Assembly (NCBI RefSeq): GCF_003991155.1
Contig: NZ_CP031293.1
Source of the DNA: Escherichia coli
GTDB taxonomy: Bacteria > Pseudomonadota > Gammaproteobacteria > Enterobacterales > Enterobacteriaceae
Strand: one strand, 5' to 3'
Length of the DNA stretch: 64,000 bases
The first letter of the stretch is position 1. Each line of letters opens with the position of its first letter. Made by a program: the position numbers and the translations under genes. Positions 11,943 through 62,623 of this stretch are shown piece by piece. A model generated the notes under the pieces. The model worked only from the letters and a program-made list of their open reading frames with translations, made no database searches and was not told where the DNA came from.

Positions 11943-12833
11943 ATGCGTAAGTTCATTTTCGTATTGCTGACACTGCTTTTGGTCAGCCCTTTTTCCTTTG
12001 CGATGAAAGGTATTATCTGGCAACCACAAAACCGTGATAGTCAGGTTACCGATACCCAGTGGCAGGGGCTGATGAGTCAGTTACGTTTGCAAGGCTTCGA
12101 TACCCTGGTTTTGCAATGGACTCGTTACGGCGATGCATTCACCCAGCCAGAACAGCGCGCGTTATTGTTTAAGCGTGCCGCAGCTGCGCAACAGGCTGGC
12201 CTGAAGCTGATTGTCGGGCTGAATGCCGATCCGGAATTTTTTATGCACCAGAAACAGTCGTCTGCAGCGCTGGAAAGCTATCTTAACCGCCTGCTGGCTG
12301 CCGATCTCCAGCAAGCCAGATTATGGAGCGCCGTACCTGGCGTAACGCCGGATGGCTGGTACATCAGCGCGGAAATTGACGACCTGAACTGGCGCAGCGA
12401 AGCCGCCCGTCAGCCTTTGCTAACATGGTTAAACAACGCGCAGCGGTTGATTAGCGATGTTTCAGCAAAACCGGTTTATATCAGTAGTTTTTTCGCCGGA
12501 AACATGTCGCCCGATGGCTATCGCCAACTGCTGGAACACGTTAAAGCAACCGGCGTTAATGTCTGGGTACAGGATGGCAGCGGCGTGGATAAACTGACCG
12601 CTGAACAGCGTGAACGTTATCTACAGGCCAGCGCCGATTGCCAAAGCTCCGCCCCAGCAAGCGGCATTGTTTATGAACTGTTTGTCGCCGGCAAAGGCAA
12701 AACCTTTACAGCGAAACCGAAACCGGACGCAGAAATTGCCTCGCTGTTAGCGAAACGTTCCTCTTGCGGTAAAGACACGCTCTATTTCTCTCTGCGCTAT
12801 TTGCCCGTCGCGCACGGCATTCTCGAGTATTAA
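11943..12833 (+). CDS. ybcH: YbcH family protein (DUF4434-like)
   Basis: 296-aa ORF MRKFIFVLLTLLLVSPFSFA...; ATG abuts the nfrA stop. Confidence 0.85.
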   Translation: MRKFIFVLLTLLLVSPFSFAMKGIIWQPQNRDSQVTDTQWQGLMSQLRLQGFDTLVLQWTRYGDAFTQPEQRALLFKRAAAAQQAGLKLIVGLNADPEFFMHQKQSSAALESYLNRLLAADLQQARLWSAVPGVTPDGWYISAEIDDLNWRSEAARQPLLTWLNNAQRLISDVSAKPVYISSFFAGNMSPDGYRQLLEHVKATGVNVWVQDGSGVDKLTAEQRERYLQASADCQSSAPASGIVYELFVAGKGKTFTAKPKPDAEIASLLAKRSSCGKDTLYFSLRYLPVAHGILEY

Positions 12834-13015
12834 ATCTCCTCCAGGTAAGTCGGGTACGACCTGGCTTACCTCTTTCGCTCTCGTCAGAATTCCATCAAGA
12901 TTAATTGCTAAAAAGCGTGCTAAAGAAAGAAGATCGTTATCGGCGAACGGGCCGATCACTCATGCAGGAAGCATAGATCCTTTGAGCGGAGTTTCTGATA
13001 TCTGAGGAGTGCGAA

Positions 13016-13777
13016 ATGCAATTGAGCAGCAGTGAACCTTGCGTGGTGATCCTGACCGAAAAAGAGGTAGAGGTAAGCGTCAATAACCATGCTACGTTTA
13101 CCCTTCCGAAAAACTACCTGGCCGCCTTCGCGTGCAACAATAACGTCATTGAACTCTCAACGTTAAATCACGTATTAATCACCCACATCAACCGTAACAT
13201 CATCAACGATTATCTGTTGTTTTTAAATAAGAACTTAACCTGTATAAAGCCCTGGTCGCGGCTGGCAACCCCGGTTATCGCTTGTCATAGCCGTACACCG
13301 GAAGTGTTCCGGCTAGCCGCCAACCACAGCAAGCAGCAACCCAGCAAACCCTGCGAAGCGGAGTTGACGCGCGCATTGCTTTTTACCGTATTGTCTAACT
13401 TTCTTGAGCAATCGCGGTTTATTGCCCTACTGATGTATATCTTACGCAGCAGCGTCCGCGACAGCGTCTGCCGCATTATTCAAAGCGATATTCAGCATTA
13501 CTGGAATCTGCGAATTGTCGCCAGTTCGCTATGTTTAAGCCCCAGCCTGCTCAAAAAGAAATTAAAAAACGAAAATACCAGCTATAGCCAGATTGTCACA
13601 GAGTGTCGTATGCGTTACGCCGTACAGATGTTATTGATGGATAACAAAAATATCACTCAGGTAGCGCAATTATGTGGCTATAGCAGCACGTCGTACTTTA
13701 TCTCTGTTTTTAAGGCGTTTTACGGCCTGACACCGTTGAATTATCTCGCCAAACAGCGACAAAAAGTGATGTGGTGA
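13016..13777 (+). CDS. envY: EnvY AraC-family transcriptional regulator
   Basis: 253-aa ORF with C-terminal AraC HTH (…VAQLCGYSSTSYFISVFKAFYGLTP). Confidence 0.85.
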   Translation: MQLSSSEPCVVILTEKEVEVSVNNHATFTLPKNYLAAFACNNNVIELSTLNHVLITHINRNIINDYLLFLNKNLTCIKPWSRLATPVIACHSRTPEVFRLAANHSKQQPSKPCEAELTRALLFTVLSNFLEQSRFIALLMYILRSSVRDSVCRIIQSDIQHYWNLRIVASSLCLSPSLLKKKLKNENTSYSQIVTECRMRYAVQMLLMDNKNITQVAQLCGYSSTSYFISVFKAFYGLTPLNYLAKQRQKVMW

Positions 13778-13822
13778 AGGGCAAAGCGGAAACGGATAAG
13801 ACGGGGATAAATGAAGAAGAAA

Positions 13823-13867
13823 TGGCGCGCCCTGCAGGATTCGAACCTGCGGCCCACGACTTAGAAG
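13823..13867. repeat. attR core: 45-bp duplicate of the argU 3' end
   Basis: TGGCGCGCCCTGCAGGATTCGAACCTGCGGCCCACGACTTAGAAG matches 62547-62591; sequence diverges after 13867. Confidence 0.9.
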
Positions 13868-14289
13868 TTCCTAGAACGACATTTTAAGTCAACAACTTAC
13901 CGCGCCATCTCTGCGCTCACACGTCCCACTACCTCAAAACATGTAAAGCCTTGCAAGCCATTGTGAGGCCTTATGTGTCTCAGTTTTGTCCCTCTTTTTT
14001 GTACCAAAAAACATAGCAATTGAGGATAAACCTCATGCTATTTTCGCTTATATGCCTCTAAAGGCATGGCGCTTAAATAGATAAAAACACCACAAAAGCA
14101 TAAAAAACCACACAGTAAAACCGCAACATAAAACAATAACAGATAATTAAACCAAAAACAGATAGCGCATTGTGATAATCATTCAATACTAAACAAAATA
14201 TAAACAGTGGAGCAATATGTAATTGACTCATTAAGTTAGATATAAAAAATACATATTCAATCATTAAAACGATTGAATGGAGAACTTTT

Positions 14290-15243
14290 ATGCGGGCGAA
14301 ACTTCTGGGAATAGTCCTGACAACCCCTATTGCGATCAGCTCTTTTGCTTCTACCGAGACTATATCGTTTACTCCTGACAACATAAATGCGGGCATTAGT
14401 CTTGGAACTCTGAGCGGAAAAACAAAAGAGCGCGTTTATCTAGCTGAAGAAGGAGGCCGAAAAGTCAGTCAACTCGACTGGAAATTCAATAACGCTGCAA
14501 TTATTAAAGGTGCAATTAATTGGGATTTGATGCCCCAGATATCTATTGGGGCTGCGGGCTGGACTACTCTCGGCAGCCGAGGTGGCAATATGGTCGATCA
14601 GGACTGGATGGATTCCAGTAACCCCGGAACCTGGACAGATGAAAGTAGGCACCCTGATACACAACTCAATTATGCCAACGAATTTGATCTGAATATCAAA
14701 GGCTGGCTCCTCAACGAACCCAATTACCGCCTGGGACTCATGGCCGGATATCAGGAAAGCCGTTATAGCTTTACAGCCAGAGGTGGTTCCTATATCTACA
14801 GTTCTGAGGAGGGATTCAGAGATGATATCGGCTCCTTCCCGAATGGAGAAAGAGCAATCGGCTACAAACAACGTTTTAAAATGCCCTACATTGGCTTGAC
14901 TGGAAGTTATCGTTATGAAGATTTTGAGCTAGGTGGCACATTTAAATACAGCGGCTGGGTGGAAGCATCTGATAACGATGAGCACTATGACCCAGGAAAA
15001 AGAATCACTTATCGCAGTAAAGTCAAAGACCAAAATTACTATTCTGTTGCAGTCAATGCAGGTTATTACGTAACACCTAACGCAAAAGTTTATGTTGAAG
15101 GCGCATGGAATCGGGTTACGAATAAAAAAGGTAATACTTCACTTTATGATCACAATGATAACACTTCAGACTACAGCAAAAATGGTGCAGGCATAGAAAA
15201 CTATAACTTCATCACTACTGCTGGTCTTAAGTACACCTTTTAA
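14290..15243 (+). CDS. ompT: OmpT outer-membrane protease (omptin)
   Basis: 317-aa ORF MRAKLLGIVLTTPIAISSFASTETISFTPDNIN... Confidence 0.95.
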   Translation: MRAKLLGIVLTTPIAISSFASTETISFTPDNINAGISLGTLSGKTKERVYLAEEGGRKVSQLDWKFNNAAIIKGAINWDLMPQISIGAAGWTTLGSRGGNMVDQDWMDSSNPGTWTDESRHPDTQLNYANEFDLNIKGWLLNEPNYRLGLMAGYQESRYSFTARGGSYIYSSEEGFRDDIGSFPNGERAIGYKQRFKMPYIGLTGSYRYEDFELGGTFKYSGWVEASDNDEHYDPGKRITYRSKVKDQNYYSVAVNAGYYVTPNAKVYVEGAWNRVTNKKGNTSLYDHNDNTSDYSKNGAGIENYNFITTAGLKYTF

Positions 15244-15429
15244 CGAAGTTAACCAGATTTTCTCCCCGGTGGTATTGTATAACCCCGGGGAATTTGTTTA
15301 CAGTTACAAGTAGACAATATCCACTAATTTTGTAAGCATTTAACCTATGTCATAACGTGTAATCTCTTACCGCAACACAAGACCTCAATATATTCAAATC
15401 TTATCTTTATTCCGATATTCAGAGACACA

Positions 15430-16914
15430 ATGCGAAAAATAATTACTCATTTCAAAGTTGTTTTAACGTTACTTCTACCAGTAACCGTATCTGCCCAGCA
15501 GATACAGTGGCAATCCTGTATGGCCAGTCAATTCAACCACTGGTTTGGTGAGGAAAAACCGTCTCCTGACTTACTATGTGGTTATTTGTCTGTTCCATTA
15601 AAATATACAGACACAGGCGGAGATGCTTCTTATGAAAAAAAATCACAAGTCAAACTAGCGTTGACAAAATTGCCGGCAAAAAGCAAGCATAAAGGAAGTA
15701 TCCTGATAATAAGTGGTGGTCCCGGGTTACCAGGCATAAATCCTTATATTAACTTTGACTGGCCAGTCACAAATCTTCGTGAGTCATGGGATATTATTGG
15801 ATTTGATCCTCGAGGCGTCGGACAGTCCACTCCGACAATAAACTGCCGGCAATCAGATACAGAGACTCAGGAAAACATAACCGAAAAGCAACAAGTATTA
15901 AATAAAATTAATGCCTGTATCCATAATACCGGAGCCGAAGTCATTCGCCATATCGGCTCTAACGAGGCTGTATACGATATTGATCGTATTAGGCAAGCCT
16001 TGGGGGATAAACAACTGACAGCCGTGGCGTATTCGTATGGAACTCAAATTGCAGCCTTATATGCAGAACGTTTTCCCTACAACGTAAGATCTATCGTTCT
16101 TGATGGAGTCGTCGATATCGATGACCTGGAGGACAACTTCACATGGCAACTCAAACAGGCACAGAGTTATCAGGAAACGTTTGATCGCTTTGCATCCTGG
16201 TGTGCGCGTACAAAAAGTTGCCCGCTTTCTTCAGACAGAGATAAGGCAATAACTCAGTTCCATGAGCTATTATCAAAATTACATCACAAACCTTTATTAG
16301 ACAGTAAGGGAGAAAATATATCTTCAGATGAACTCATATCATTAACAACAGACCTTCTGCTATGGCGTTCATCATGGCCAACCCTTGCAACTGCCATACG
16401 CCAGTTCTCTCAGGGGATTGTCAGTAATGAAATTGAAACTGCGCTCAGTGCTCCGATAGCCTCAGAAGAGTCAAGCGATGCTTCGGGGGTAATCCTCTGT
16501 GTAGATCAGGGGGATGAGCAATTAACACCAGAAGAGCGAAAATCCCGAAAAGACGCTCTTGCGAATGCCTTCCCGGCTATTAACTTTGACAATGGACGTT
16601 CCGATTCACCTGATTTTTGTGAATTATGGCCAATACATAGCGACCTGAACAAAACTCGCCTGAAAAATACTGTTCTGCCCTCTGGTTTACTGTTTGTAGC
16701 ACACAAATACGACCCAACAACGCCCTGGATTAATGCCCGTAAGATGGCAGAGAAATTTTCCAGCCCGTTACTAACAATAAATGGTGATGGGCATACATTA
16801 GCTCTCACCGGAGTTAATTTATGTGTAGATAAAGCAGTTGTACATCACCTGATCACTCCACAAAAAATAGAAAATATATACTGCCCAGGAAATTCTGAAG
16901 CAGAAATACAATAA
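15430..16914 (+). CDS. Secreted alpha/beta-hydrolase, S33 (tripeptidyl aminopeptidase-like) family
   Basis: 494-aa ORF with signal peptide MRKIITHFKVVLTLLLPVTVSA; nucleophile elbow AYSYGTQ (GxSxG). Confidence 0.7.
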   Translation: MRKIITHFKVVLTLLLPVTVSAQQIQWQSCMASQFNHWFGEEKPSPDLLCGYLSVPLKYTDTGGDASYEKKSQVKLALTKLPAKSKHKGSILIISGGPGLPGINPYINFDWPVTNLRESWDIIGFDPRGVGQSTPTINCRQSDTETQENITEKQQVLNKINACIHNTGAEVIRHIGSNEAVYDIDRIRQALGDKQLTAVAYSYGTQIAALYAERFPYNVRSIVLDGVVDIDDLEDNFTWQLKQAQSYQETFDRFASWCARTKSCPLSSDRDKAITQFHELLSKLHHKPLLDSKGENISSDELISLTTDLLLWRSSWPTLATAIRQFSQGIVSNEIETALSAPIASEESSDASGVILCVDQGDEQLTPEERKSRKDALANAFPAINFDNGRSDSPDFCELWPIHSDLNKTRLKNTVLPSGLLFVAHKYDPTTPWINARKMAEKFSSPLLTINGDGHTLALTGVNLCVDKAVVHHLITPQKIENIYCPGNSEAEIQ

Positions 16915-16926
16915 TTTCAAAATATT

Positions 16927-16976
16927 CCGCTATTTGCTCCCAATGCAAAACATATATTGCATTGGGAGCATATTCA
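16927..16976 (+). terminator. Rho-independent terminator after the hydrolase gene
   Basis: Inverted repeat GCTCCCAATGCAA...TTGCATTGGGAGC followed by a T-rich tract. Confidence 0.5.
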
Positions 16977-17180
16977 TATTTTTGTTATTCTTGTATGAAA
17001 TCGTCTCATGTACACGGTCCTTTTTTCGCCGAAAACTGATATTACTTTAATCAAAAGTTGACGTGCCAGATTCGAAGTAAATTTATAAAATATCAAATCA
17101 ATATACATTTTGCACCTTCGAGATAGTAATTGCTGTTACTGTAACATGAGTTACAAACAGCTTCATACCCAGAGCTACTG

Positions 17181-17400
17181 ATGTATCAACACGATTCAAC
17201 AATACCCGATATTTATTCCATGCCTCCAGCAACGATCTTTCTTCCTCCGTTGCGATTTCCCAGCATCCTGCAGTGGCGCAATATACTCACTGAATTCCTG
17301 GATGTAGAACTGTGTGGTGACGGTCTTCCAGCCATTCGGCTCCTGCTGTATCGAAGCATACCAGGCTATTTCAATATCGCTATGCTGCGGCAGCATTTAA
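17181..17400 (-). pseudogene. tfa: Tail fibre assembly (Tfa) 3' remnant, frameshifted
   Basis: Minus-strand frames read ...EYIAPLQDA and [27 protein letters not shown] in different frames; no N-terminus. Confidence 0.65.
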
Positions 17401-17452
17401 CCCCTTGTAATTCATCGCCATAATTGATTTAATTCACAAATAAAACTATAAC

Positions 17453-18121
17453 ATGGTGAAATTAATGAAAAAAAACACAGATGATGGGGCTAAAATTTAC
17501 ACACCACTTACCCTAAAGCTTTATGACTGGTGGGTTTTGGGAGTATCAAATCGGCTTGCATGGGGATGTCCTACAAAGGAACACCTTCTTCCACACTTTC
17601 TGGAACATTTAGGTAACAACCATCTGGATATTGGTGTTGGAACTGGGTTTTACCTTACTCACGTACCTGAGAGCAGTCTGATATCTTTAATGGATTTGAA
17701 CGAAGCTAGCCTGAACGCGGCATCTACAAGGGCTGGGGAATCAAAAATTAAACATAAAATTAGCCATGATGTTTTTGAACCTTATCCCGCGGCGTTACAT
17801 GGTCAATTTGATTCCATTTCCATGTTTTACCTTCTTCACTGCCTGCCTGGAAATATATCTACAAAAAGCTGTGTAATACGCAATGCGGCGCAGGCCTTAA
17901 CTGACGATGGAACTCTATACGGAGCCACAATTCTTGGCGATGGAGTTGTGCACAATAGCTTCGGTCAAAAACTGATGCGCATTTACAATCAGAAAGGCAT
18001 CTTTTCAAACACAAAAGATTCCGAAGAAGGCTTAACACATATACTCTCAGAGCATTTCGAGAATGTTAAAACCAAGGTTCAAGGTACTGTAGTAATGTTT
18101 TCCGCTTCAGGGAAAAAATAG
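17453..18121 (+). CDS. ybcY: Class I SAM-dependent methyltransferase (YbcY-like)
   Basis: 222-aa ORF with motif I LDIGVGTGFY; sits between tfa remnants as ybcY does in DLP12. Confidence 0.7.
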   Translation: MVKLMKKNTDDGAKIYTPLTLKLYDWWVLGVSNRLAWGCPTKEHLLPHFLEHLGNNHLDIGVGTGFYLTHVPESSLISLMDLNEASLNAASTRAGESKIKHKISHDVFEPYPAALHGQFDSISMFYLLHCLPGNISTKSCVIRNAAQALTDDGTLYGATILGDGVVHNSFGQKLMRIYNQKGIFSNTKDSEEGLTHILSEHFENVKTKVQGTVVMFSASGKK

Positions 18122-18222
18122 CATCCAACCGCAGCACGTTCTTGCTTAAGACGTGCTGCGGCATAATCCCAATGATTACTCCCTGACAGGGTTCGTAGGC
18201 CACTCAATATCAGGTGCAGTTG

Positions 18223-18300
18223 ATGTATCAACACGGTTCAGCAACACCCGATACTTCTTCCAGGCTTCCAGCAACGAGGTTTCTTCCTCCGTTGCATATA
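18223..18300 (-). pseudogene. tfa: Tail fibre assembly (Tfa) C-terminal remnant, second copy
   Basis: Minus-strand frame reads [25 protein letters not shown]; direct-repeat homolog of 17181-17260. Confidence 0.6.
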
Positions 18301-18313
18301 CAGCTCACTTTTT

Positions 18314-18607
18314 TCACCCACGATTAACCAACAGCCAGACCAGCAGACACGCCACCACCGGCACAGCAAAATCCATCAGACTTGCTACATCCCACGCGCG
18401 CGGATCAAAACCGCCCCACCACGGCATATTCATTCGCTTGCCATGCCCGAACATTTCAATCCAGCGATATTCTGCCTGGGTGTGTTCACGCGCAATGAAG
18501 AACGTACAACCGGCTATCGCCCCGTAAACCCAGTTTCCGGTAAAAAGACCAATCAGTACCTGCGCAGCCACAGCACAAAGCGCATGAAGAAAAGGTGTTA
18601 TATCCAT
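18314..18607 (-). CDS. Small hydrophobic protein of unknown function
   Basis: 97-aa ORF MDITPFLHALCAVAAQVLIGLF... with predicted TM helices; same strand as tail genes. Confidence 0.35.
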   Translation of the reverse strand: MDITPFLHALCAVAAQVLIGLFTGNWVYGAIAGCTFFIAREHTQAEYRWIEMFGHGKRMNMPWWGGFDPRAWDVASLMDFAVPVVACLLVWLLVNRG

Positions 18608-18617
18608 TACTCCTCCT

Positions 18618-19322
18618 TTATCTAATATCGCTTCGGGAAGTTAATAACAACTTTAATTCTGACTCAAGTTCATCAACTCTTTCAGTCAGTTTCTGGATAT
18701 GGTGAATCAGTGGAACAACCAGACGTTCGTACATTACACCTTCGGCAACAAGGCCATTGCTGGAAATAGCTTCAGGAGCATCATCTTCGTTAGCTGGTCG
18801 CCAGTGTACAAACTGAGGAGCAATTTCTCCTACTTCCTCGGCAATCAATCCGTAGAATCCCCAGTCACGCCTGTCATTTTCGCATTGCGACCTGTACCAC
18901 ACAGGGCGCATCCTGAAAATGAGATCGGCGTGCTCTGAATCTATTGTCTCTACTGAATGTTTATAGCGGATAGACGATGTTGACCGCAGCACAGACGAAA
19001 TTGCAGGGTCAGGATTAAGATAAAGGTTTGCCGCCGCTGTAGTCGTGGCCAAATTCCATAAATAAAACGCTTCACGACCTGTCAGTGGATAAAAATCTCC
19101 GCCATAACGACCACTTTCCAGATCGTTCACTTCCACTTTGTTTTTCAGCTTATTATCAACTTCAGTTTTTGTGTATCTGGAGCTGATATCCTGCTTTGCA
19201 CTGGTCATCTCAGTCTGAAGCGTTGATACTTTTCTGCTAATTGATGAAATATCTTCCTTAGCTTTACTGACATCTCCCTTTAGCTTGGTGATATCTCCTG
19301 GAATTACTGTCGATGTAGCCAT
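18618..19322 (-). CDS. Tail-fibre-like protein with coiled coil and C-terminal S74-type intramolecular chaperone domain
   Basis: 234-aa ORF; C-terminal pattern RPVWYR...GFYGLIAEEVGEIAPQFV...LVVPLIHHIQKL resembles S74 chaperone domains. Confidence 0.55.
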   Translation of the reverse strand: MATSTVIPGDITKLKGDVSKAKEDISSISRKVSTLQTEMTSAKQDISSRYTKTEVDNKLKNKVEVNDLESGRYGGDFYPLTGREAFYLWNLATTTAAANLYLNPDPAISSVLRSTSSIRYKHSVETIDSEHADLIFRMRPVWYRSQCENDRRDWGFYGLIAEEVGEIAPQFVHWRPANEDDAPEAISSNGLVAEGVMYERLVVPLIHHIQKLTERVDELESELKLLLTSRSDIR

Positions 19323-19331
19323 TTTTCTGCC

Positions 19332-19613
19332 TCACATCCAGCCACGAAGTTGATGCTCAACAACAACCGCGTATTTATCGAATATTGACGATTTTTTTGC
19401 ATCATTAATGATGCGCACGTTTACAAAATATCCATCTTCCTTAACACATACCGGTTCGCCATCTTCAGTCAGCTCTCCGGTTTCTTTGTACACGTTACCT
19501 ATCACGTCAATAAGAATATCATCCTGCATCGACTCGTCATCATAATAACCAGCACTCTCCATAAAGGTCGAAAAGTCGGCCCTGTCGGCAAATTTGAGTG
19601 TTAAATCTTTCAT
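19332..19613 (-). CDS. Hypothetical small phage protein
   Basis: 93-aa ORF directly downstream of stf with overlapping stop/start. Confidence 0.4.
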   Translation of the reverse strand: MKDLTLKFADRADFSTFMESAGYYDDESMQDDILIDVIGNVYKETGELTEDGEPVCVKEDGYFVNVRIINDAKKSSIFDKYAVVVEHQLRGWM

Positions 19614-21991
19614 TAGATTGACTCCCCCACCTGAGCATCAGTCAATGCCTTGTGCCATATTCTGAAATTCCTGACATGACCAAATAAATGACGTAACCCG
19701 GCTGTAGTCTGGCCTCCAATACGGATAATTGCGGTGTTCTGAATATAGGACCATGTGGTTTTTGTTTCGCTGGATATACGCCCGTTACTTACTGAGCACG
19801 TAGACTGATCTGACTTTACACGCATCCCCATAACCATTTTTTCAAGCAATGCGTTTTCGTTTACCCGTCTGTTAGCTCCTCCAATATCGCAATAAGGAAA
19901 TCCGTCGTAATCTGTTGAATGACCGAAGCCAAGAATAATAGCCGCTCCGGTTTGATGACCGCCGGTATCAAAAACACGCGGTGCTGCATTTGGCGTTTTA
20001 TACCAGTTCTTATGTACCTCACAAAGAACCGTAAAAGGAAGATTATAAAGGTTATTCTTGATTGGGACTGTCACCATATCGCTTGCGCGGGTCGCTGCCG
20101 TCGTTTCTGATATAATAAAAGATGATGCGCAAGGGCCATTTTCAACCTGAGGGGTGGACAGGAAAATATAATCTCCCGATTCAACGACACCACCTTCTTT
20201 TGGTGCGTATTGTATTGCCGAGGTTATGCAGGACTCGTCAATTGCCTGAATCGTTGCCTCTGCAAAAATCCAGCCCGTAACCTCATCCTTGTTAACTCGA
20301 GCAGTGAGCCTGTCGGCAGCTACACCGGTGATTTCAACCGATAAAGACCGCGTATTAACAATGGCATATCCAAGATTAGATGAAGCGCTGCCATCGAAGG
20401 CTTCAAACCTGATCCTTAACCGGAGTTCCAAATCCGTTTTAAATCTGCACGATGTCGTCACACACTTATTATCGCCTGATACATCGACAGCCCCGGTTAC
20501 TGTAACTGACGCCATGTTAACAGGAGAGGTTTTCCCAATCAGAGAATCGTTACAGACAAATTTTCCATAAGTAAAACCAAAACTATCCGTCCCGGTTTCG
20601 GGCACATCCATATTTACCGACTTGCCCCAACTGGCAGGGGTTTCCGAATTGAGCATGTAGTTCGTTCTCTGACCCTCAATAAGCAGGCCATCACGTTCAA
20701 ATCGTGGCTCGTCAATGGCAGCCTCTGTCAGCACACCAGATTTATTAATATAGGTTGCTTTCGATGCGCGTTTAAACTTTACAACCTTATCGCCAGGCAT
20801 CGTTATTTCATCATCACCAATAACAATCTTTTTATATGATGGCGAAAACCCCGTAATCATATCCAGTGAATCGTTAAACGGTATCCACACATCAGGCAGT
20901 GGCTGTAAGACATATTTATACGGCTCTGCTGCCTGACTTGCATACTCTCTGGCTGCGTCTTCACTTGCTTTTGCAGCGGTCTGGCTTGCAGCGGATGCTT
21001 TCGCCGAGTTCGCCGCTGCAGTCTCGCTTGTCTTTGCATTGGTTTCACTGGTTTTTGCTGCTTTTTGACTGTTGGCTGATGCAGTGGCAGAAGCAGCCGC
21101 CGCACTTGCAGAACCAGCTGCGGCACTCTCGCTTTGGGCTGCTGCATCCTGACTGTTTTTCGCCGCAGTTTCGCTGGCTTTAGCATTCGTTTCGCTGGTC
21201 TTCGCTGCCGTCTGGCTGGACTTTGCGTTGGTTTCGCTCGTCTTCGCTGCTTTCTGACTGTTAGCCGCAGCAGTTGCTGATCCAGCTGCTGAAGTCGCAG
21301 AACCGGCTGCTGCGCTCTCGCTTTCAGCTGCTGCAGCCTGGCTGTTTTTCGCCGCAGTTTCACTGGCTTTAGCATTCGTTTCGCTGGTCTTCGCTGCCGT
21401 CTGGCTTGACTTTGCGTTGGTTTCGCTCGTCTTTGCTGCTGTCTCGCTATTTTTCGCGTTGGTTTCTGATTTTTTGGCTGCTGTCGCGGAATTTGCCGAT
21501 GCAGTCTGTGAGGTCGCTGCCGCCTGTGCGCTGTTAGCTGCATTCGTTTCTGAGGTTTTCGCCGCGTTCTTCGATGATGCCGCTGCAGTTTCGGATTTCT
21601 TTGCCGCCGCTGCGCTCTGAGAGGCGGCTTCGGCGTTGCGTGCCACTTCTTCCACCATTGCCTCAAAACGACGCAATGCCTCCGGCATGACATCATCTTC
21701 CGTCATGGCACCGAGAAAATCATTCAGCGTACCTGGTCTGGAGCCTTCATAGACGGTAATGGTCCCAGCATGTGAAGGCGGAAAACCTTCAACCAGCAGG
21801 GTGACGCTGTACTGGCCATACTCAACATCCATGCTGTAACGTCCGGCTTCATCCGGATTTTCAGAAGCCACCGTGTTCACCAGTACCGTGGTGCTGTTAC
21901 GCTTTGCCTTCAGTTGAATAGTGCAGTTCTGTATTGGTTTTCCCGCACCATCTTTCAGCACACCTGAGATTTTTACTGCTGCCATATCCAC
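19613..21991 (-). CDS. stf: Side tail fibre protein Stf: lambda/Rac-type N-terminus, Ser/Thr/Ala repeat array, divergent C-terminal domain
   Basis: 792-aa ORF ...AAVKISGVLKDGAGKPIQNCTIQLKAKRNSTTV...; repeated KTSETNAKxSxTAAK units. Confidence 0.85.
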   Translation of the reverse strand: MDMAAVKISGVLKDGAGKPIQNCTIQLKAKRNSTTVLVNTVASENPDEAGRYSMDVEYGQYSVTLLVEGFPPSHAGTITVYEGSRPGTLNDFLGAMTEDDVMPEALRRFEAMVEEVARNAEAASQSAAAAKKSETAAASSKNAAKTSETNAANSAQAAATSQTASANSATAAKKSETNAKNSETAAKTSETNAKSSQTAAKTSETNAKASETAAKNSQAAAAESESAAAGSATSAAGSATAAANSQKAAKTSETNAKSSQTAAKTSETNAKASETAAKNSQDAAAQSESAAAGSASAAAASATASANSQKAAKTSETNAKTSETAAANSAKASAASQTAAKASEDAAREYASQAAEPYKYVLQPLPDVWIPFNDSLDMITGFSPSYKKIVIGDDEITMPGDKVVKFKRASKATYINKSGVLTEAAIDEPRFERDGLLIEGQRTNYMLNSETPASWGKSVNMDVPETGTDSFGFTYGKFVCNDSLIGKTSPVNMASVTVTGAVDVSGDNKCVTTSCRFKTDLELRLRIRFEAFDGSASSNLGYAIVNTRSLSVEITGVAADRLTARVNKDEVTGWIFAEATIQAIDESCITSAIQYAPKEGGVVESGDYIFLSTPQVENGPCASSFIISETTAATRASDMVTVPIKNNLYNLPFTVLCEVHKNWYKTPNAAPRVFDTGGHQTGAAIILGFGHSTDYDGFPYCDIGGANRRVNENALLEKMVMGMRVKSDQSTCSVSNGRISSETKTTWSYIQNTAIIRIGGQTTAGLRHLFGHVRNFRIWHKALTDAQVGESI

Positions 21992-22049
21992 TCCACAAAA
22001 AAGCCCGCCTGAACCGGCGGGCTGTCATAACACTGTGTTACCTGGCTAA

Positions 22050-22649
22050 TCAGAATTTATAACCGACACCCACGATGAAACCGTCAGTGCGCCAGTCGCC
22101 ACTGCCGGAGCCTTCATAAGCAATATCAATGGCCACGGATTCGGTCGGGTTAAACTGCACGCCAGCTCCCCACGCCAGAGACGTGTTGCTGTGGCGATCG
22201 TCATCACTTCCGGTCAGCACATCGTGCGTTTTCCCCTTGTTGTCAGTTACGCGGAGATAATCCCCGGAGAACGTCGAAACACGGCTGTAAGCCACACCTG
22301 CCATCGCATAAGCACTGAACCATTCATTCACGCGTACAGATGGCCCCGCCATCATGCTGAACCAGCGGTTACGCACTGAATCTTCATGCCAGCGGGTATC
22401 GCTGTAATGCGTTTTTTGCTCATCTTTGGCATTGGCATAACTGAATGACGTCACCAGCCCCAGCGTGTCCGTAAATTCATAACGGTATTTCACGTTAATG
22501 CCCTTCAGGTCATCACTGCCTGGCATATCAGTATGGGTCTGAAGATACCCGGCGCTTAGTGTGGACTGATGCTCTGCTGCGCTCGCTGGCGTACCAGCGG
22601 CAACCAGCCAGACTACTGCGGACAGAATAACAGCACATAATTTACGCAT
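22050..22649 (-). CDS. lom: Lom outer-membrane protein (Ail/Lom family)
   Basis: Start MRKLCAVILSAVVWLVAAGTPASA; C-terminus ...DGFIVGVGYKF. Confidence 0.9.
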   Translation of the reverse strand: MRKLCAVILSAVVWLVAAGTPASAAEHQSTLSAGYLQTHTDMPGSDDLKGINVKYRYEFTDTLGLVTSFSYANAKDEQKTHYSDTRWHEDSVRNRWFSMMAGPSVRVNEWFSAYAMAGVAYSRVSTFSGDYLRVTDNKGKTHDVLTGSDDDRHSNTSLAWGAGVQFNPTESVAIDIAYEGSGSGDWRTDGFIVGVGYKF

Positions 22650-22716
22650 AATTACCTCTCGCTTTTCTGCAATAAAAAAGGCGTCATTTCTGACGCCCAT
22701 ATTGGGGTTATAAAAT

Positions 22717-25700
22717 TCAGCTGATACTGATGCCTGCGGTGGCTTTCTTCATCACCACAACCAGCAAATCGCTGATACTTGCTGTGGGATACCAGCCATT
22801 TACCAGCCATGCCGATACAGAAAATTCCAGTGTCATGACACCACTGCCTGCAGGCATATCAATAACACCCGTATATATCAGCGTATTATCCAGAGCCGTT
22901 CGGTTATAAATTTCAGCACCGTTTTTTCGTACTATCAGACGGCATGAGGAGTAGATATCAGTATGATCTTGCTCATGTTTAGCGCCACTGAATGCCACCG
23001 CCGGGATAACAATTTGCCGGTCAAACGGCTGATCGTCATAAACCCTGACGGTAATGGTTCCTGATGGCCACCGCTCCGGTGCACGGGAGTCCCGGGGGAA
23101 AGCTTTGCCCACCGTTTTAACAATATCGCCTTCAATCTGGTTGGCTGACAGTTTTCCCAGAATCCGGCAGTTCTGATTAATCGTGACATTGTTGAGCGTC
23201 CCGGAGTTCGCATTCACGTTACCGCTGATATCGGCATTTTTCGCCGTCAGCCGCCCGTCCGGTGTCAGGGAAAATGCCGGAGGATTACCGCCGCTGGTAA
23301 TGGTGGGAGCCGTCAGGTATTTCAGGAACACTTCGTTCATGAATATCTGATCGCCCTGACCAACAAACATCGGCTTTGTGTTGCCATTCGCAGGATTAAT
23401 CATCGCAATCCTGTCTGCCGCCAGCAGCACCTGACTCTGCATGCCGTCAGGGGTGTTTTCAATACCGGCACCAATACCCGCGATATAAAGGCGTCCGTCC
23501 TGCATCTGCTGCAGCTTCACAGCCCACATGCTGTTCAGGTTATTATTTGTATCAACCTGAACCTTCTGTATCTGCTGGATCGCTGCACTCTGGTCTTCCA
23601 GTTTCTTATTGACGGTCTGCGTGATTTCATTACTGACATCCGTGATGGACGTTCTGATTTCCGCCAGGTCAGGCGCAAGCTGACCGTTATCAATCTGCGT
23701 CCACAACTCCTGAGCCAGATGGGTTTTCCCTATCTCTCCTTTGAAAAAATCCAGATAGCCGGATGCATCATCACTCGGCTGGCCAACAGCCTCCACGAAT
23801 GCCGATTTGCCAACGGTGTTCACACTGCGGATGTAAAAATAATAATCATGGCCCGGCCTGATATTGATACTGGCAGCTATCCAGTACAGCGCCGTGCCAA
23901 GATAGCGCGCTGTGGTTTCAACCTGTCTGATATCCGCAATCCGCTTTTCCGAGAACCAGAACTCAAACTGTACCGTCGGGTCATAAACGGCAAGATGCGG
24001 CGTGGCGGTGATCTGAAAATAGCCCGGCGTCAGCTCAATCTGTGACGGCGCTGCCGGTGCGGCAATCCGGAACGATACCGATGCAGGATCGCCCTGCTGT
24101 CCCCACGCATTTACCGCCCGGACTGTCAGCCTGTAGTTCCCCAGCGCCAGTTGCGTGAAGCGGTATGTGGTTTCCGCCGTCCGGGCCGTGCTGACCAGCC
24201 GCTCACTGCCGTCATCCGCTGCCACGGTCAGGCGAAGCATGAAACTCACGCCCTTCACCACCTTCGGCGTGTCCCAGCGGGCCAGTACCTGATACTCCCC
24301 GCTGTCTGCGGTGACTTCGGCAGTCAGGTGCTGCACCGCTGGCGGCGTGACACCATTCACCGTGCCGCTCTGGTCGCCGTCAAAGTGCGCCCCGTTATCC
24401 ACGATGGCTTCTTTTTCCGGTACATGCTGCACGGCGGTGATGGCATACGTGCCGTCGTCGTTCTCACGGATACTCACGCAGCGGAACAGGCGCTGGCGCA
24501 GCGTCGGCAGCTTCAGCCCCCACACGCTGTATTCGGCTATCCCGTCAGGAAACCGGCTCACTTTCACCTTCACGCCGTCGGTGACGGACTGGACTTCCAC
24601 GCTGACCGGATTGCCCTGCCCGTCAACCAGGCTTATCAGCGTGGTACCGGAGGATGGCAGCGTGATTTCACGGTCGAGCGTCAGCGTCCGGGTCTGGCTG
24701 TTCACCGCCAGCACGCGCCCGCCAATGCTGATCCCCGCATAGTCATCATCGCAGATTTCAATAACATCACCCGGTACATGGCGAAGCCCTTCTGCGCCGA
24801 CGCTGAAATCCACGGTCTGCGTTTCCAGCAGTTCTGTTTTAATCAGCCACAGCCCGGCGCGGTGTGCCTGCCCCCGGCTGGTACAGCCAAAGGCATCCAT
24901 CTTCGTGACGTTACGACCGTAACGGGCAATGGCCTGCGTGTCCTCCACAAGCTCTGTCGCCGTCTCCCAGCCGTTATTCGGGTCAATCCAGTTCACCTCA
25001 ACGGCATTATGACGGTCCTTCAGGGCGCTGAAGCTGTAGCGGAACGGCGCGCCATCATCCGGCATCACCACATTACTACGGTTATAGGTCCACACCTTAT
25101 CCGATGGCCGGTCCTGCACGAACGTCAGCGTCTGCCCGTTCCATACCGGCATACAGCGCATCGCCGAGCAGAAATCACTGAGCACATCCCACGCCTTGCG
25201 CTGCGTGGTCAGCCAGGCATTACAGGTGATGCGCGGCTCCGTGCCACCAAAGCCATCCGGCACCGACTGGTCGCAATTCTGGCCGATGACATACAGCGCC
25301 CATTTGTCCACATCCGCCGCACCGAGACGCTTCCCCATGCCGTAGCGCGGATGGGTCAGCATATCCCACAGACACCAGGCCATGTTGTTGCTGTATGCCG
25401 GTTTAAACGTCCCGTCCCAGATACCGCTGTATTGCCGCGTCTGCGGGTTATAGTTCGACGGCACCTGCAGAATACGCCCGCGCAGATGATAATTACGGCT
25501 CACCTGCTGGCTGCCGAACTGCTCCGAGTCCACCTGCACGCCGACCAGTGCCGTGTTCGGGTAGCACTGTTTCACATCGATGATTTCGGTGTATGACGAC
25601 CAGAGCGTTTTGTTCTGCAGCTGGTCTGTGGTGCTGTCCGGCGTCATCCTGCGCATCCGGATATTAAACGGGCGCGGCGGCAGGTTATCCACCACCACTG

Positions 25701-37252: not shown

Positions 37253-40934
<3,682 letters not shown>

Positions 40935-61169: not shown

Positions 61170-61512
61170 GGCCTGTCAGTTTCTTAAGATATCCAGACCA
61201 ACCGCCACCAACTGGATACGAACAGGCCGCCTACAGGCAACACGTAAAGATCCAACCAAGCCAAAATCTCCTTACCTCACAACACGGCAAGCCTGCATTG
61301 CGGCGCTTCAGTCTCCGCTGCATACTGTCCAGGTGAGCGCGGGTGATGGCATAACAGAGGAAAGAAAATGTCACTCTTCCGCAGAAATGAAATATGGTAT
61401 GCCTCGTATTCGCTCCCGGGCGGGAAACGAATTAAGGAATCTCTTGGCACAAAGGACAAGCGGCAAGCTCAGGAGTTGCACGACAAGCGAAAAGCAGAAC
61501 TCTGGCGAGTAG
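61141..61512 (+). CDS. xis: Excisionase / AlpA-like HTH protein
   Basis: [31 protein letters not shown]... immediately upstream of and overlapping int; exact 3' extent uncertain. Confidence 0.5.
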
Positions 61513-62531
61513 AAAAGCTAGGGGATTTACCTGATGTCACTTTTGAAGAGGCCTGCCTAAGATGGCTTGAGGAAAAAGCTGATAAAAAATCTCTCGATTC
61601 AGATAAAAGCCGGATTGAGTTCTGGCTTGAACATTTTGAGGGTATAAGGCTTAAAGATATCTCGGAGGCAAAGATTTACTCTGCTGTAAGCAGAATGCAT
61701 AACAGAAAGACGAAAGAAATATGGAAACAGAAAGTTCAGGCCGCCATCAGGAAAGGTAAAGAACTGCCTGTTTATGAACCAAAGCCAGTATCAACTCAGA
61801 CAAAGGCAAAGCATCTTGCCATGATAAAGGCCATTCTCCGTGCTGCAGAACGCGACTGGAAGTGGCTGGAAAAAGCGCCTGTCATCAAGATACCAGCGGT
61901 CAGAAACAAGCGAGTCAGATGGCTGGAAAAGGAGGAAGCAAAACGCCTTATTGATGAGTGCCCCGAACCACTGAAATCTGTCGTCAAGTTTGCGCTGGCA
62001 ACTGGTCTGAGAAAGTCGAACATCATAAATCTGGAATGGCAACAAATCGACATGCAGCGACGAGTTGCCTGGGTGAATCCAGAAGAGAGCAAATCAAACC
62101 GCGCCATTGGTGTGGCGCTGAACGATACCGCCTGTAAAGTGTTGCGTGATCAAATAGGCAAGCATCGCAAATGGGTGTTTGTACATACCAAGGCGGCTAA
62201 GCGAGCAGATGGAACATCAACGCCTGCGGTCAGGAAGATGCGCATCGACAGCAAGACATCATGGCTATCAGCTTGTCGTCGTGCAGGAATTGAAGATTTC
62301 CGTTTCCATGACCTCAGACACACCTGGGCAAGCTGGCTGATTCAGTCAGGCGTCCCATTATCAGTGCTTCAGGAAATGGGCGGATGGGAGTCCATAGAAA
62401 TGGTTCGTAGGTATGCTCACCTTGCGCCTAATCATTTGACAGAGCATGCGAGGAAAATAGACGACATTTTTGGTGATAATGTCCCAAATATGTCCCACTC
62501 TGGAATTATGGAGGATATAAAGAAGGCGTAA
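61368..62531 (+). CDS. intD: Tyrosine integrase (DLP12 IntD-like, argU-specific)
   Basis: 387-aa [36 protein letters not shown]...; C-terminal [10 protein letters not shown]...RYAH catalytic motifs; next to tRNA-Arg. Confidence 0.9.
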
Positions 62532-62546
62532 CTGATTGAATTGTAA

Positions 62547-62623
62547 TGGCGCGCCCTGCAGGATTCGAACCTGCGGCCCACGACTTAGAAGGTCGTTGCT
62601 CTATCCAACTGAGCTAAGGGCGC
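62547..62623 (-). tRNA. argU: tRNA-Arg (anticodon UCU), attL site
   Basis: Reverse complement GCGCCCTTAGCTCAGTTGGATAGAGCAACGACCTTCTAAGTCGTGGGCCGCAGGTTCGAATCCTGCAGGGCGCGCCA; 3' 45 nt duplicated at 13823. Confidence 0.9.

Follow-up and report, generated by a model that had tools for sequence, protein, structure and literature searches.

The locus described here lies in a 64,000-nucleotide stretch of Escherichia coli DNA (NCBI RefSeq assembly GCF_003991155.1, contig NZ_CP031293.1; the whole stretch is referred to as the window), in which an intact gene of the ybcY type, coding for a class I S-adenosylmethionine (SAM)-dependent methyltransferase (MTase), stands between two directly repeated pieces of the phage tail fibre assembly gene tfa. 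The elements of the locus are listed below; ORF is open reading frame, and PGAP is the NCBI Prokaryotic Genome Annotation Pipeline, whose labels are taken from an identical RefSeq locus.

17098-17259, minus strand: left tfa remnant, C-terminal part (translation, tblastn, PGAP).
17179-17253: direct repeat, copy 1 (repeat search and binomial statistics).
17262-17396, minus strand: N-terminal part of a tfaX-like ORF (MLPQHSDIEIAW...IAPLQDA; translation; phrog_2341, 5e-31).
17397-17452, plus strand: 56-nt spacer with promoter-like hexamers for the MTase (consensus scan).
17465-18121, plus strand: ybcY-type class I SAM-dependent MTase, intact, 218 amino acids (Pfam, PHROGs, family alignment, AlphaFold).
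18129-18161: GC-rich hairpin of 33 nt between the convergent stops of the MTase (18121) and the tfa stump (18176) (RNA folding).
18176-18295, minus strand: right tfa remnant, consisting of the 39 final codons of a TfaD-type gene (translation, tblastn, Pfam, PGAP).
18221-18295: direct repeat, copy 2; the tail-fibre module is joined to it at its upstream edge, the breakpoint 18295/18296.

The pair 17179-17253 and 18221-18295 is the one direct-repeat family found by the repeat search in positions 14000-21000. The copies are identical at 66 of 75 nt (88%), their spacing is 1042 nt, and the longest perfect run that they share is 16 nt. The binomial chance of 66 matches in 75 is about 2e-28 per alignment and about 1e-18 across all offsets of the window, so that their similarity, which a first-pass annotation of this DNA had named as a test of its own reading, is significant. 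That annotation had proposed a direct repeat of about 75 bp at the end of tfa, with coordinates within 2-5 nt of those given here, and the C-terminal Tfa peptides that it quoted are exactly reproduced by the minus-strand translations of both copies.

Neither piece contains a complete Caudo_TAP domain in an ORF with a start codon, and both are remnants. The right one is 100% identical at the protein level to residues 149-187 of TfaD from E. coli K-12 (tblastn) and matches positions 95-130 of the 131 in the Pfam Caudo_TAP profile (E 1.7e-17); its start codon is absent, there is an in-frame stop three codons upstream, and PGAP labels it 'incomplete, missing N-terminus'. The left one corresponds to TfaD residues 147-175 followed by a divergent tail (90% identity over 29 amino acids in tblastn with K-12 TfaD), and its PGAP label is 'tail fiber assembly protein, frameshifted, incomplete'. 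In the window the tfaX-like ORF (tfa') has lost 7 bp (AGATCTA, between 17260 and 17261), as seen in the alignment with phages ev243, 2G7b and Kati and with K-12; the loss splits it into this C-terminal part and an N-terminal part that is in another frame. The same ORF is intact in phage ev243, where it codes for 101 amino acids, and Caudo_TAP covers only residues 30-76 of that protein (profile positions 75-121). The active phage 2G7b has the identical 7-bp deletion, and the tfaX-like ORF is therefore dispensable for phage growth. Searches of the window with blastn and tblastn detected no tfa-like piece beyond these two, and no complete tfa gene anywhere in the prophage to which the locus belongs.

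On the strand opposite the tfaX-like ORF, a 'DinI family' fragment is annotated by PGAP (17298-17378, plus strand). Pfam detects no DinI signal in the 80-amino-acid plus-strand ORF at this place, and does detect one in the genuine DinI-like gene of a prophage at the dusA site; the call was left unconfirmed, and the stretch is treated here as the N-terminal part of the tfaX-like ORF.

Two tfa-derived pieces on either side of a foreign gene might be produced by insertion of the MTase into a single tfa, or by decay of an invertible tail-fibre segment with two tfa genes, of the Mu G, P1 C or e14 P type; the related phage Kati does have a DNA invertase beside tfa, about 1.1 kb beyond its MTase. Simple insertion is excluded, however, because residues 125/147-175 of Tfa in one piece and 149-187 in the other belong to the same C-terminal part and are not complementary halves, while an invertible segment is at odds with the direct orientation of the copies and with the lack of any annotated invertase within 6 kb in the identical locus. 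We hold an origin of either kind to be very improbable.

The MTase gene is open and of full length, in agreement with the first-pass annotation. PGAP places its start at 17453, which gives a protein of 222 amino acids, and the ATG at 17465 is likely to be the start codon; it has GGTGA 5 nt upstream, the profile phrog_2132 starts at residue 5 of the 222-residue form (E 7.9e-157, profile positions 1-218 of 218), the typical family member is 218 residues long, and PGAP itself calls the 218-residue form in another strain. This full-length profile match and orthology to K-12 ybcY both place the protein in the YbcY family, the function of which is given as unknown in PHROGs. Four Pfam models score above their curated cut-offs, namely Methyltransf_12 (PF08242, 37.6 bits against 30), Methyltransf_23 (PF13489, 28.8 against 27), Methyltransf_25 (PF13649, 27.7 against 27) and Methyltransf_11 (PF08241, 24.6 against 21.2). 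The SAM-binding motif I, LDIGVGTG, is at residues 54-61, and its G57, G59 and G61 are nearly invariant in 70 diverse homologues; Y20, D77, H125, G153 and D185 are invariant in the same set, and YbcY has every one of them. D77 is the acidic residue that ends strand 2, one of the marks of SAM binding. The AlphaFold (AF2) model, with a mean predicted local distance difference test score (pLDDT) of 94.8 and a predicted template modelling score (pTM) of 0.90, has the seven-stranded α/β fold of the class I MTases.

Sequence searches of the PDB produced only weak generic matches, to JHAMT, UbiG, NodS, ToxA and a phosphatidylethanolamine N-methyltransferase, and the top structural neighbours of the model are all small-molecule or lipid MTases. 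The best-supported reading is that YbcY would be a small-molecule or lipid MTase of the stand-alone Rossmann-fold kind. Membership in the CpaM, RquA and PmtA families was considered and rejected, the NCBIfam matches being all far below the cut-offs. The whole family comprises 1319 clusters at the 50% level (E <=0.001). Homologues with 55-70% identity are solitary chromosomal genes of Enterobacter, Erwinia and Yersinia, in non-phage, non-conserved neighbourhoods, and remoter ones, from a metagenome bacterium and a fungal genome, are likewise solitary and in non-phage contexts. No conserved operon was seen around homologues in the neighbourhoods compared; genes for hydrolases, esterases and dehydrogenases recur near them, which is suggestive at most. 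Among long representatives of the family there is one fusion with a cytochrome P450 and one with RCC1, and the others have no recognisable extra domain.

The first-pass annotation had left the target undecided between DNA, RNA and a small molecule. The small-molecule or lipid type is now favoured, and DNA is a very unlikely target: YbcY lacks a motif of the DPPY type or a PCQ motif as well as a target-recognition domain, a restriction partner is missing too, and its top structural neighbours act on small molecules or lipids. Specifically, regular-expression searches of the protein found no DNA-MTase motif IV, (D/N/S)PP(Y/F/W), and no C5-type PCQ motif or PC dipeptide, with a lone ENV at residue 199; nor is there an extra domain or structural likeness to DNA MTases. 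Orphan DNA MTases are often carried by phages, and one might suppose that YbcY modifies phage DNA, or RNA, in an anti-restriction or epigenetic role. The MTase has a weak PADLOC match to mad2 (methylation-associated defence), with an E value of 0.0033 that is at chance level, and a few RNA MTases (CmoA, METTL6, RsmC) have low ranks in the structure and sequence searches. We give this possibility hardly any credence, and expression of YbcY is expected, judging by its motifs and structural neighbours, to give no new DNA methylation motif.

The spacer ahead of the gene contains two pairs of promoter-like hexamers, TTAACC-16-CATAAT (17397-17424) and TTGATT-17-TATAAC (17424-17452). It differs from the K-12 ybcY/tfaX spacer at a single position, 17414 (C here, T in K-12), which is outside all four hexamers. 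A peak of in vitro binding by the sigma-70 RNA polymerase holoenzyme in systematic evolution of ligands by exponential enrichment (SELEX), together with H-NS, has been listed for the K-12 spacer, with TTGATT-17-TATAAC assigned to ybcY (Shimada et al., 2014; PMC3946193).

On the other side of the gene, which is oriented opposite to the late genes of the prophage, the hairpin at 18129-18161 folds with -28 and -33 kcal/mol on the two strands (z -5.0 and -5.5), and on the minus strand it is followed by the U-rich stretch UUGGAUGCUAUUUUUU. Its probable role is to terminate the late tail-fibre operon, and possibly ybcY as well; a strict terminator scan does not call it. A 45-amino-acid 'hypothetical protein' is annotated at 18066-18203 (minus strand), overlapping the 3' end of the MTase gene and the hairpin; it is doubtful, and K-12-type genomes label it 'nucleocapsid protein'. 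No Rfam family was found in 12000-23000. GC content is 0.40-0.45 over 17100-18299 versus 0.51-0.56 over 20900-22699, where the side-tail-fibre gene and the adjoining Lom-type gene are located.

The closest known system is the end of the cryptic prophage DLP12 of K-12 MG1655, where the order, in mirror image, is tfaD, ybcY, tfaX, appY, ompT, envY. The three genes tfaD-ybcY-tfaX (b0561-b0563) have the same order, orientation and chromosomal site (argU ... ompT-envY) as their counterparts in the window, and sequence identity is 95-100% over 17220-18299, a stretch that takes in both tfa 3' ends as well as the hairpin and the spacer, and 99% for the DNA of ybcY. As the first-pass annotation had stated, the K-12 gene between tfaD and tfaX is a pseudogene, whereas that of the window is intact; the K-12 defect is a 2-nt deletion in ATGAAAAAAAAC, by which the start codon is lost and the frame is shifted. 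The tfaX-like ORF carries the 7-bp deletion in the window and a TGA nonsense codon in K-12. TfaD is encoded at full length in K-12, in contrast to the 39-codon stump in the window. The first approximately 42 residues of K-12 TfaD (L002 7535-8095) match the ATPase domain of the terminase large subunit (GpA_ATPase, 4.5e-05), which makes K-12 TfaD the product of a deletion that fused a terminase fragment to tfa; the corresponding terminase segment of the window is at 40565-40780.

At the left limit of the shared cassette, the last ~55 nt of the left tfa end have an identity of 0.72, and beyond them identity is 0.6 and the sequences are unrelated, with an α/β hydrolase gene in the window versus appY in K-12. 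On the right, homology ends at 18295/18296 and identity beyond is 0.4-0.6, with the 97-residue ORF and tail-fibre module in the window versus the full tfaD in K-12. Both edges are thus within tfa 3' sequence, and the suggestion that the duplicated tfa ends are footprints of cassette exchange fits this comparison.

Distribution of the gene is broad. At >=95% identity, ybcY (17440-18175) is found in 3836 of 5426 complete E. coli genomes (~71%), in up to four places per genome, and in prophages at different attachment sites; the intact 222-residue form is by far the largest protein cluster. The intact gene is the norm in E. coli and K-12 is the exception, and the rarity of intact ybcY implied by the first-pass annotation is wrong. 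At least 80% of the region 17000-18700 is carried by 358 of the same 5426 genomes, and the 1.7 kb are identical in many of them. Phage records with ybcY number only 15. The MTase is 100% identical in the inducible lambdoid phages ev243 and 2G7b (genus Nesevirus) and in the isolates PhiR26, PhiR29, PhiR30 and PhiR49. The related phage PhiR46_1 matches the window only from ~20.66 kb onwards, and hence is without the accessory region.

The flanks of the MTase were compared in seven loci (L002-L005, L014, L015 and L016). In six of them the left piece corresponds to Tfa residues 125-175/187, in strain E7 it is absent, and the right flank is varied:

K-12 (L002): left piece, Tfa 125-184; right flank, full tfa.
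Phage ev243 (L003): left piece, Tfa 125-175; right flank, 39-codon stump.
Phage 2G7b (L004): left piece, Tfa 125-175, split by the 7-bp deletion; right flank, 39-codon stump.
Phage Kati (L005): left piece, Tfa 134-184; right flank, complete tfa ~1.8 kb away with the DNA invertase between.
O157:H7 (L014): left piece, Tfa 125-175; right flank, complete tfa ~2.8 kb away with cargo between.
Strain E7 (L015): left piece absent, ompT abutting the MTase; right flank, long frameshifted tfa remnant.
dusA-site prophage (L016): left piece, Tfa 125-187; right flank, 39-codon stump.

In O157:H7 strain C1-057, the cargo block between the MTase and tfa (L014, 4680-6893) consists of genes for a general stress protein, two ferritin-like proteins and a manganese catalase, and an ISEc8 element is located between the left tfa piece and the hydrolase gene.

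The first-pass annotation had also suggested that the repeats may still mediate deletion or duplication of the MTase. Under this hypothesis, crossover by RecA or Red would delete the gene or duplicate it in tandem, with gain and loss within populations. In its favour, 75 nt at 88% identity are in direct orientation 1042 nt apart, a lambdoid prophage may encode Red-type recombinases (Bet is annotated in related phages), and presence of the cassette varies among related phages. RecA-dependent recombination in E. coli, however, needs roughly 20-30 nt, and the longest perfect run of 16 nt is below this minimal efficient processing segment. A synthetic deletion junction, made of the left flank, one repeat and the right flank, was found at >=80% query coverage in none of the 5426 complete genomes, and the duplication junction had no perfect single-piece match above the normal locus, a weak test since the search tool joins the halves of the normal locus. 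Strain E7 has lost the left copy and kept the MTase, and this loss is a different event, because the neighbouring cargo was also removed. In view of the 16-nt run and the missing deletion junction we regard the repeats as inert scars, possible rare events apart; their continuing activity, for which the suggestion finds no support, is in our opinion decidedly unlikely.

The setting of the locus is given by the following features:

13821-13867: prophage end, 47-nt attachment (att) core, exact repeat (47/47, blastn) of the 3' part of argU at 62545-62591.
15430-16914, plus strand: α/β hydrolase (TAP-like), 494 amino acids, at the position of K-12 appY (Abhydrolase_1, 3e-33, and Abhydrolase_4 in Pfam; PGAP).
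16935-16970: terminator-like hairpin after the hydrolase gene, z -6.1 (terminator scan and folding).
18314-19322, minus strand: end of the tail-fibre module, abutting the tfa stump (Pfam, PHROGs).
18314-18607, minus strand: hydrophobic ORF of 97 amino acids (phrog_1443), with its stop codon 18 nt beyond the right tfa remnant.
18618-19322, minus strand: tail-fibre piece of 234 amino acids with an S74 intramolecular-chaperone domain.
61368-62531: integrase ORF, adjoining the tRNA-Arg(TCT) gene.
62547-62623: tRNA-Arg(TCT) gene (argU).

The att repeats of 47 nt enclose the locus and thereby place it inside a 48.8-kb lambdoid prophage at argU, of full length in comparison with the 21-kb remnant of K-12. 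In the PGAP annotation the genes follow in the order nfrA, ybcH, envY, ompT, α/β hydrolase, tfa (frameshifted), MTase, tfa (incomplete), a hypothetical gene, a tail-fibre domain protein, further tail-fibre genes, a Lom-type gene and J. The 97- and 234-residue ORFs next to the tfa stump are also present in phage 2G7b and the dusA-site prophage. Because no complete tfa exists in the prophage, its fibre may fold without Tfa.

Several further observations concern these neighbours. The hydrolase gene (15430-16914), which takes the place of K-12 appY, is a strongly terminated stand-alone cargo gene; its product matches the PADLOC candidate-defence model PDLC01094 'C3a206 TAP-like protein' (E 6.8e-56) and is annotated as 'putative lactone hydrolase' in one phage record. 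The side-tail-fibre region (18314-19322 and 19332-21991, minus strand) ends in the 234- and 97-residue ORFs. Its 792-residue ORF has a long run of Ala/Ser/Thr-rich near-repeats (AAKTSETNAKSSQTAAKTSETNAKASETAAKNSQ..., approximately 20860-21700, minus strand), which makes the AT skew extreme, at -0.5 to -0.6, and in the identical RefSeq locus PGAP splits the gene into fragments and pseudogenes.

We consider it probable, with good though not full confidence, that ybcY is a phage cargo gene of the moron type in the dispensable b region of an argU prophage of the DLP12 family, and that the repeats are recombination scars. Both the att repeats and its equivalent place in sequenced phages locate the gene within the phage genome, in the interval from the late operon to attP; its GC content is atypical, and it varies among related phages, being limited to the 15 phage records and absent from PhiR46_1. 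Interpretation of the repeats as scars is supported by the position of both cassette edges in tfa 3' sequence and fits the varied flanks. The gene was probably captured from an enterobacterial chromosome. The right copy would be the phage's own tfa reduced to its last 39 codons, after all that lay upstream of codon 149 was replaced by a different tail-fibre end module terminating in the 97-residue ORF. The left copy would come from a second tfa, of which the C-terminal third is joined to an unrelated short N-terminus, forming the 'tfaX' ORF, which in the window the 7-bp deletion has killed. A crossover inside the conserved tfa 3' end would have exchanged the downstream cargo, hydrolase here and appY in K-12, as suggested by the last ~55 nt of the left copy, which are a different allele from that of K-12. 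On the plus strand, ybcY would probably be read from its own H-NS-bound promoter in the 56-nt spacer, its transcript would run into the hairpin, at which the late tail-fibre operon also ends from the opposite direction, and the product would probably be expressed in the lysogen as a class I SAM-dependent enzyme of the small-molecule or lipid type.

Several facts weigh against this scheme or parts of it. The phage search for a donor, with a complete tfa immediately ahead of the hydrolase gene, was negative, the junction being shared only by MTase-bearing phages, and for this reason the order of recombination events stays a reconstruction. The promoter-like hexamers are not above shuffle expectation in the consensus scan, and the -10 element of Shimada et al. 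ends just 12 nt ahead of the preferred ATG. Termination of ybcY is uncertain because the hairpin has no T-run on the plus strand. The flat ranking of structural neighbours gives the class of the enzyme and not its substrate, and the literature searched on ybcY, tfaX and DLP12, which offers a SELEX promoter table and synteny remarks only, contains no functional study of the enzyme and no transcript, protein or activity data on its gene.

A more specific proposal is that YbcY is a lysogenic-conversion enzyme, which would methylate an envelope lipid or a metabolite of the host, or a competitor's toxin or a xenobiotic, and so alter the phenotype of the host; by analogy one may compare the PmtA-type phospholipid N-methyltransferases and the toxin methyltransferase Rv0560c, which are its fold neighbours. 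With only a pseudogene in K-12, this phenotype would have escaped notice. Hydrolase or esterase genes are nearby in phages, Enterobacter, Erwinia and the fungal locus, and not in Yersinia or the metagenome bacterium; the near-fixed pairing of ybcY with the tfa' piece and these recurrent genes might reflect a two-step modification pathway. We view the lysogenic-conversion proposal as unlikely, though it has some small chance of being right, and prefer to leave ybcY as a cargo gene of the general kind outlined above.

The first-pass interpretation as a whole is partly supported. The locus itself is already known, from K-12 (b0561-b0563), from hundreds of RefSeq genomes and from phages ev243 and 2G7b; it is the DLP12 end region in undecayed form and structurally adds little. 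It is, however, a clean example of the conserved tfa 3' end serving as a crossover point for the swapping of tail-fibre modules and downstream cargo in lambdoid phages. In addition, the phage-borne MTase is nearly invariant and present in about 71% of complete E. coli genomes, so that naming its substrate would annotate thousands of genomes; K-12 cannot reveal this substrate, because its copy is dead.

Comparison with other systems helps to place the locus. Phages ev243 and 2G7b have the same layout as the window: tail fibre, tfa stump, MTase, tfa', hydrolase, ompT, attP, int. Against ev243 and PhiR26, PhiR29 and PhiR30, the structural half of the prophage has 96% identity with 82-88% of its length covered (88% for ev243; 76% for 2G7b), whereas coverage of the early regions is only 47-71%. 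Furthermore, the tfa' ORF of ev243 is not split, as it is in the window, and the tail-fibre end modules are not alike in detail, ev243 having no separate 234-residue tail-fibre piece. Among solved structures, the small-molecule and lipid MTases MM_2633 (3dtn), PmtA (8ys9), PsmD (7zgt), BelI (9fce), DhpI (3ou2), JHAMT (7ec0) and Rv0560c (7bgg) have only 9-21% identity to YbcY, and neither their substrates nor their family membership can be transferred to it. The Mu G, P1 C and e14 P segments resemble the locus in having more than one tfa-type sequence beside the tail-fibre genes; in the window, however, the copies are direct, both are 3' fragments, and no invertase is nearby. Lambdoid phages are known for moron and b-region cargo slots downstream of the tail-fibre genes, such as those of lambda lom and bor and the effector loci of O157 prophages. 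With these slots ybcY shares foreign composition, a hairpin, a position between the late operon and attP, dispensability and variability, and it may also share a promoter of its own; it differs from them in its cargo, which is predicted to be a soluble methyltransferase instead of an envelope protein or a secreted effector.

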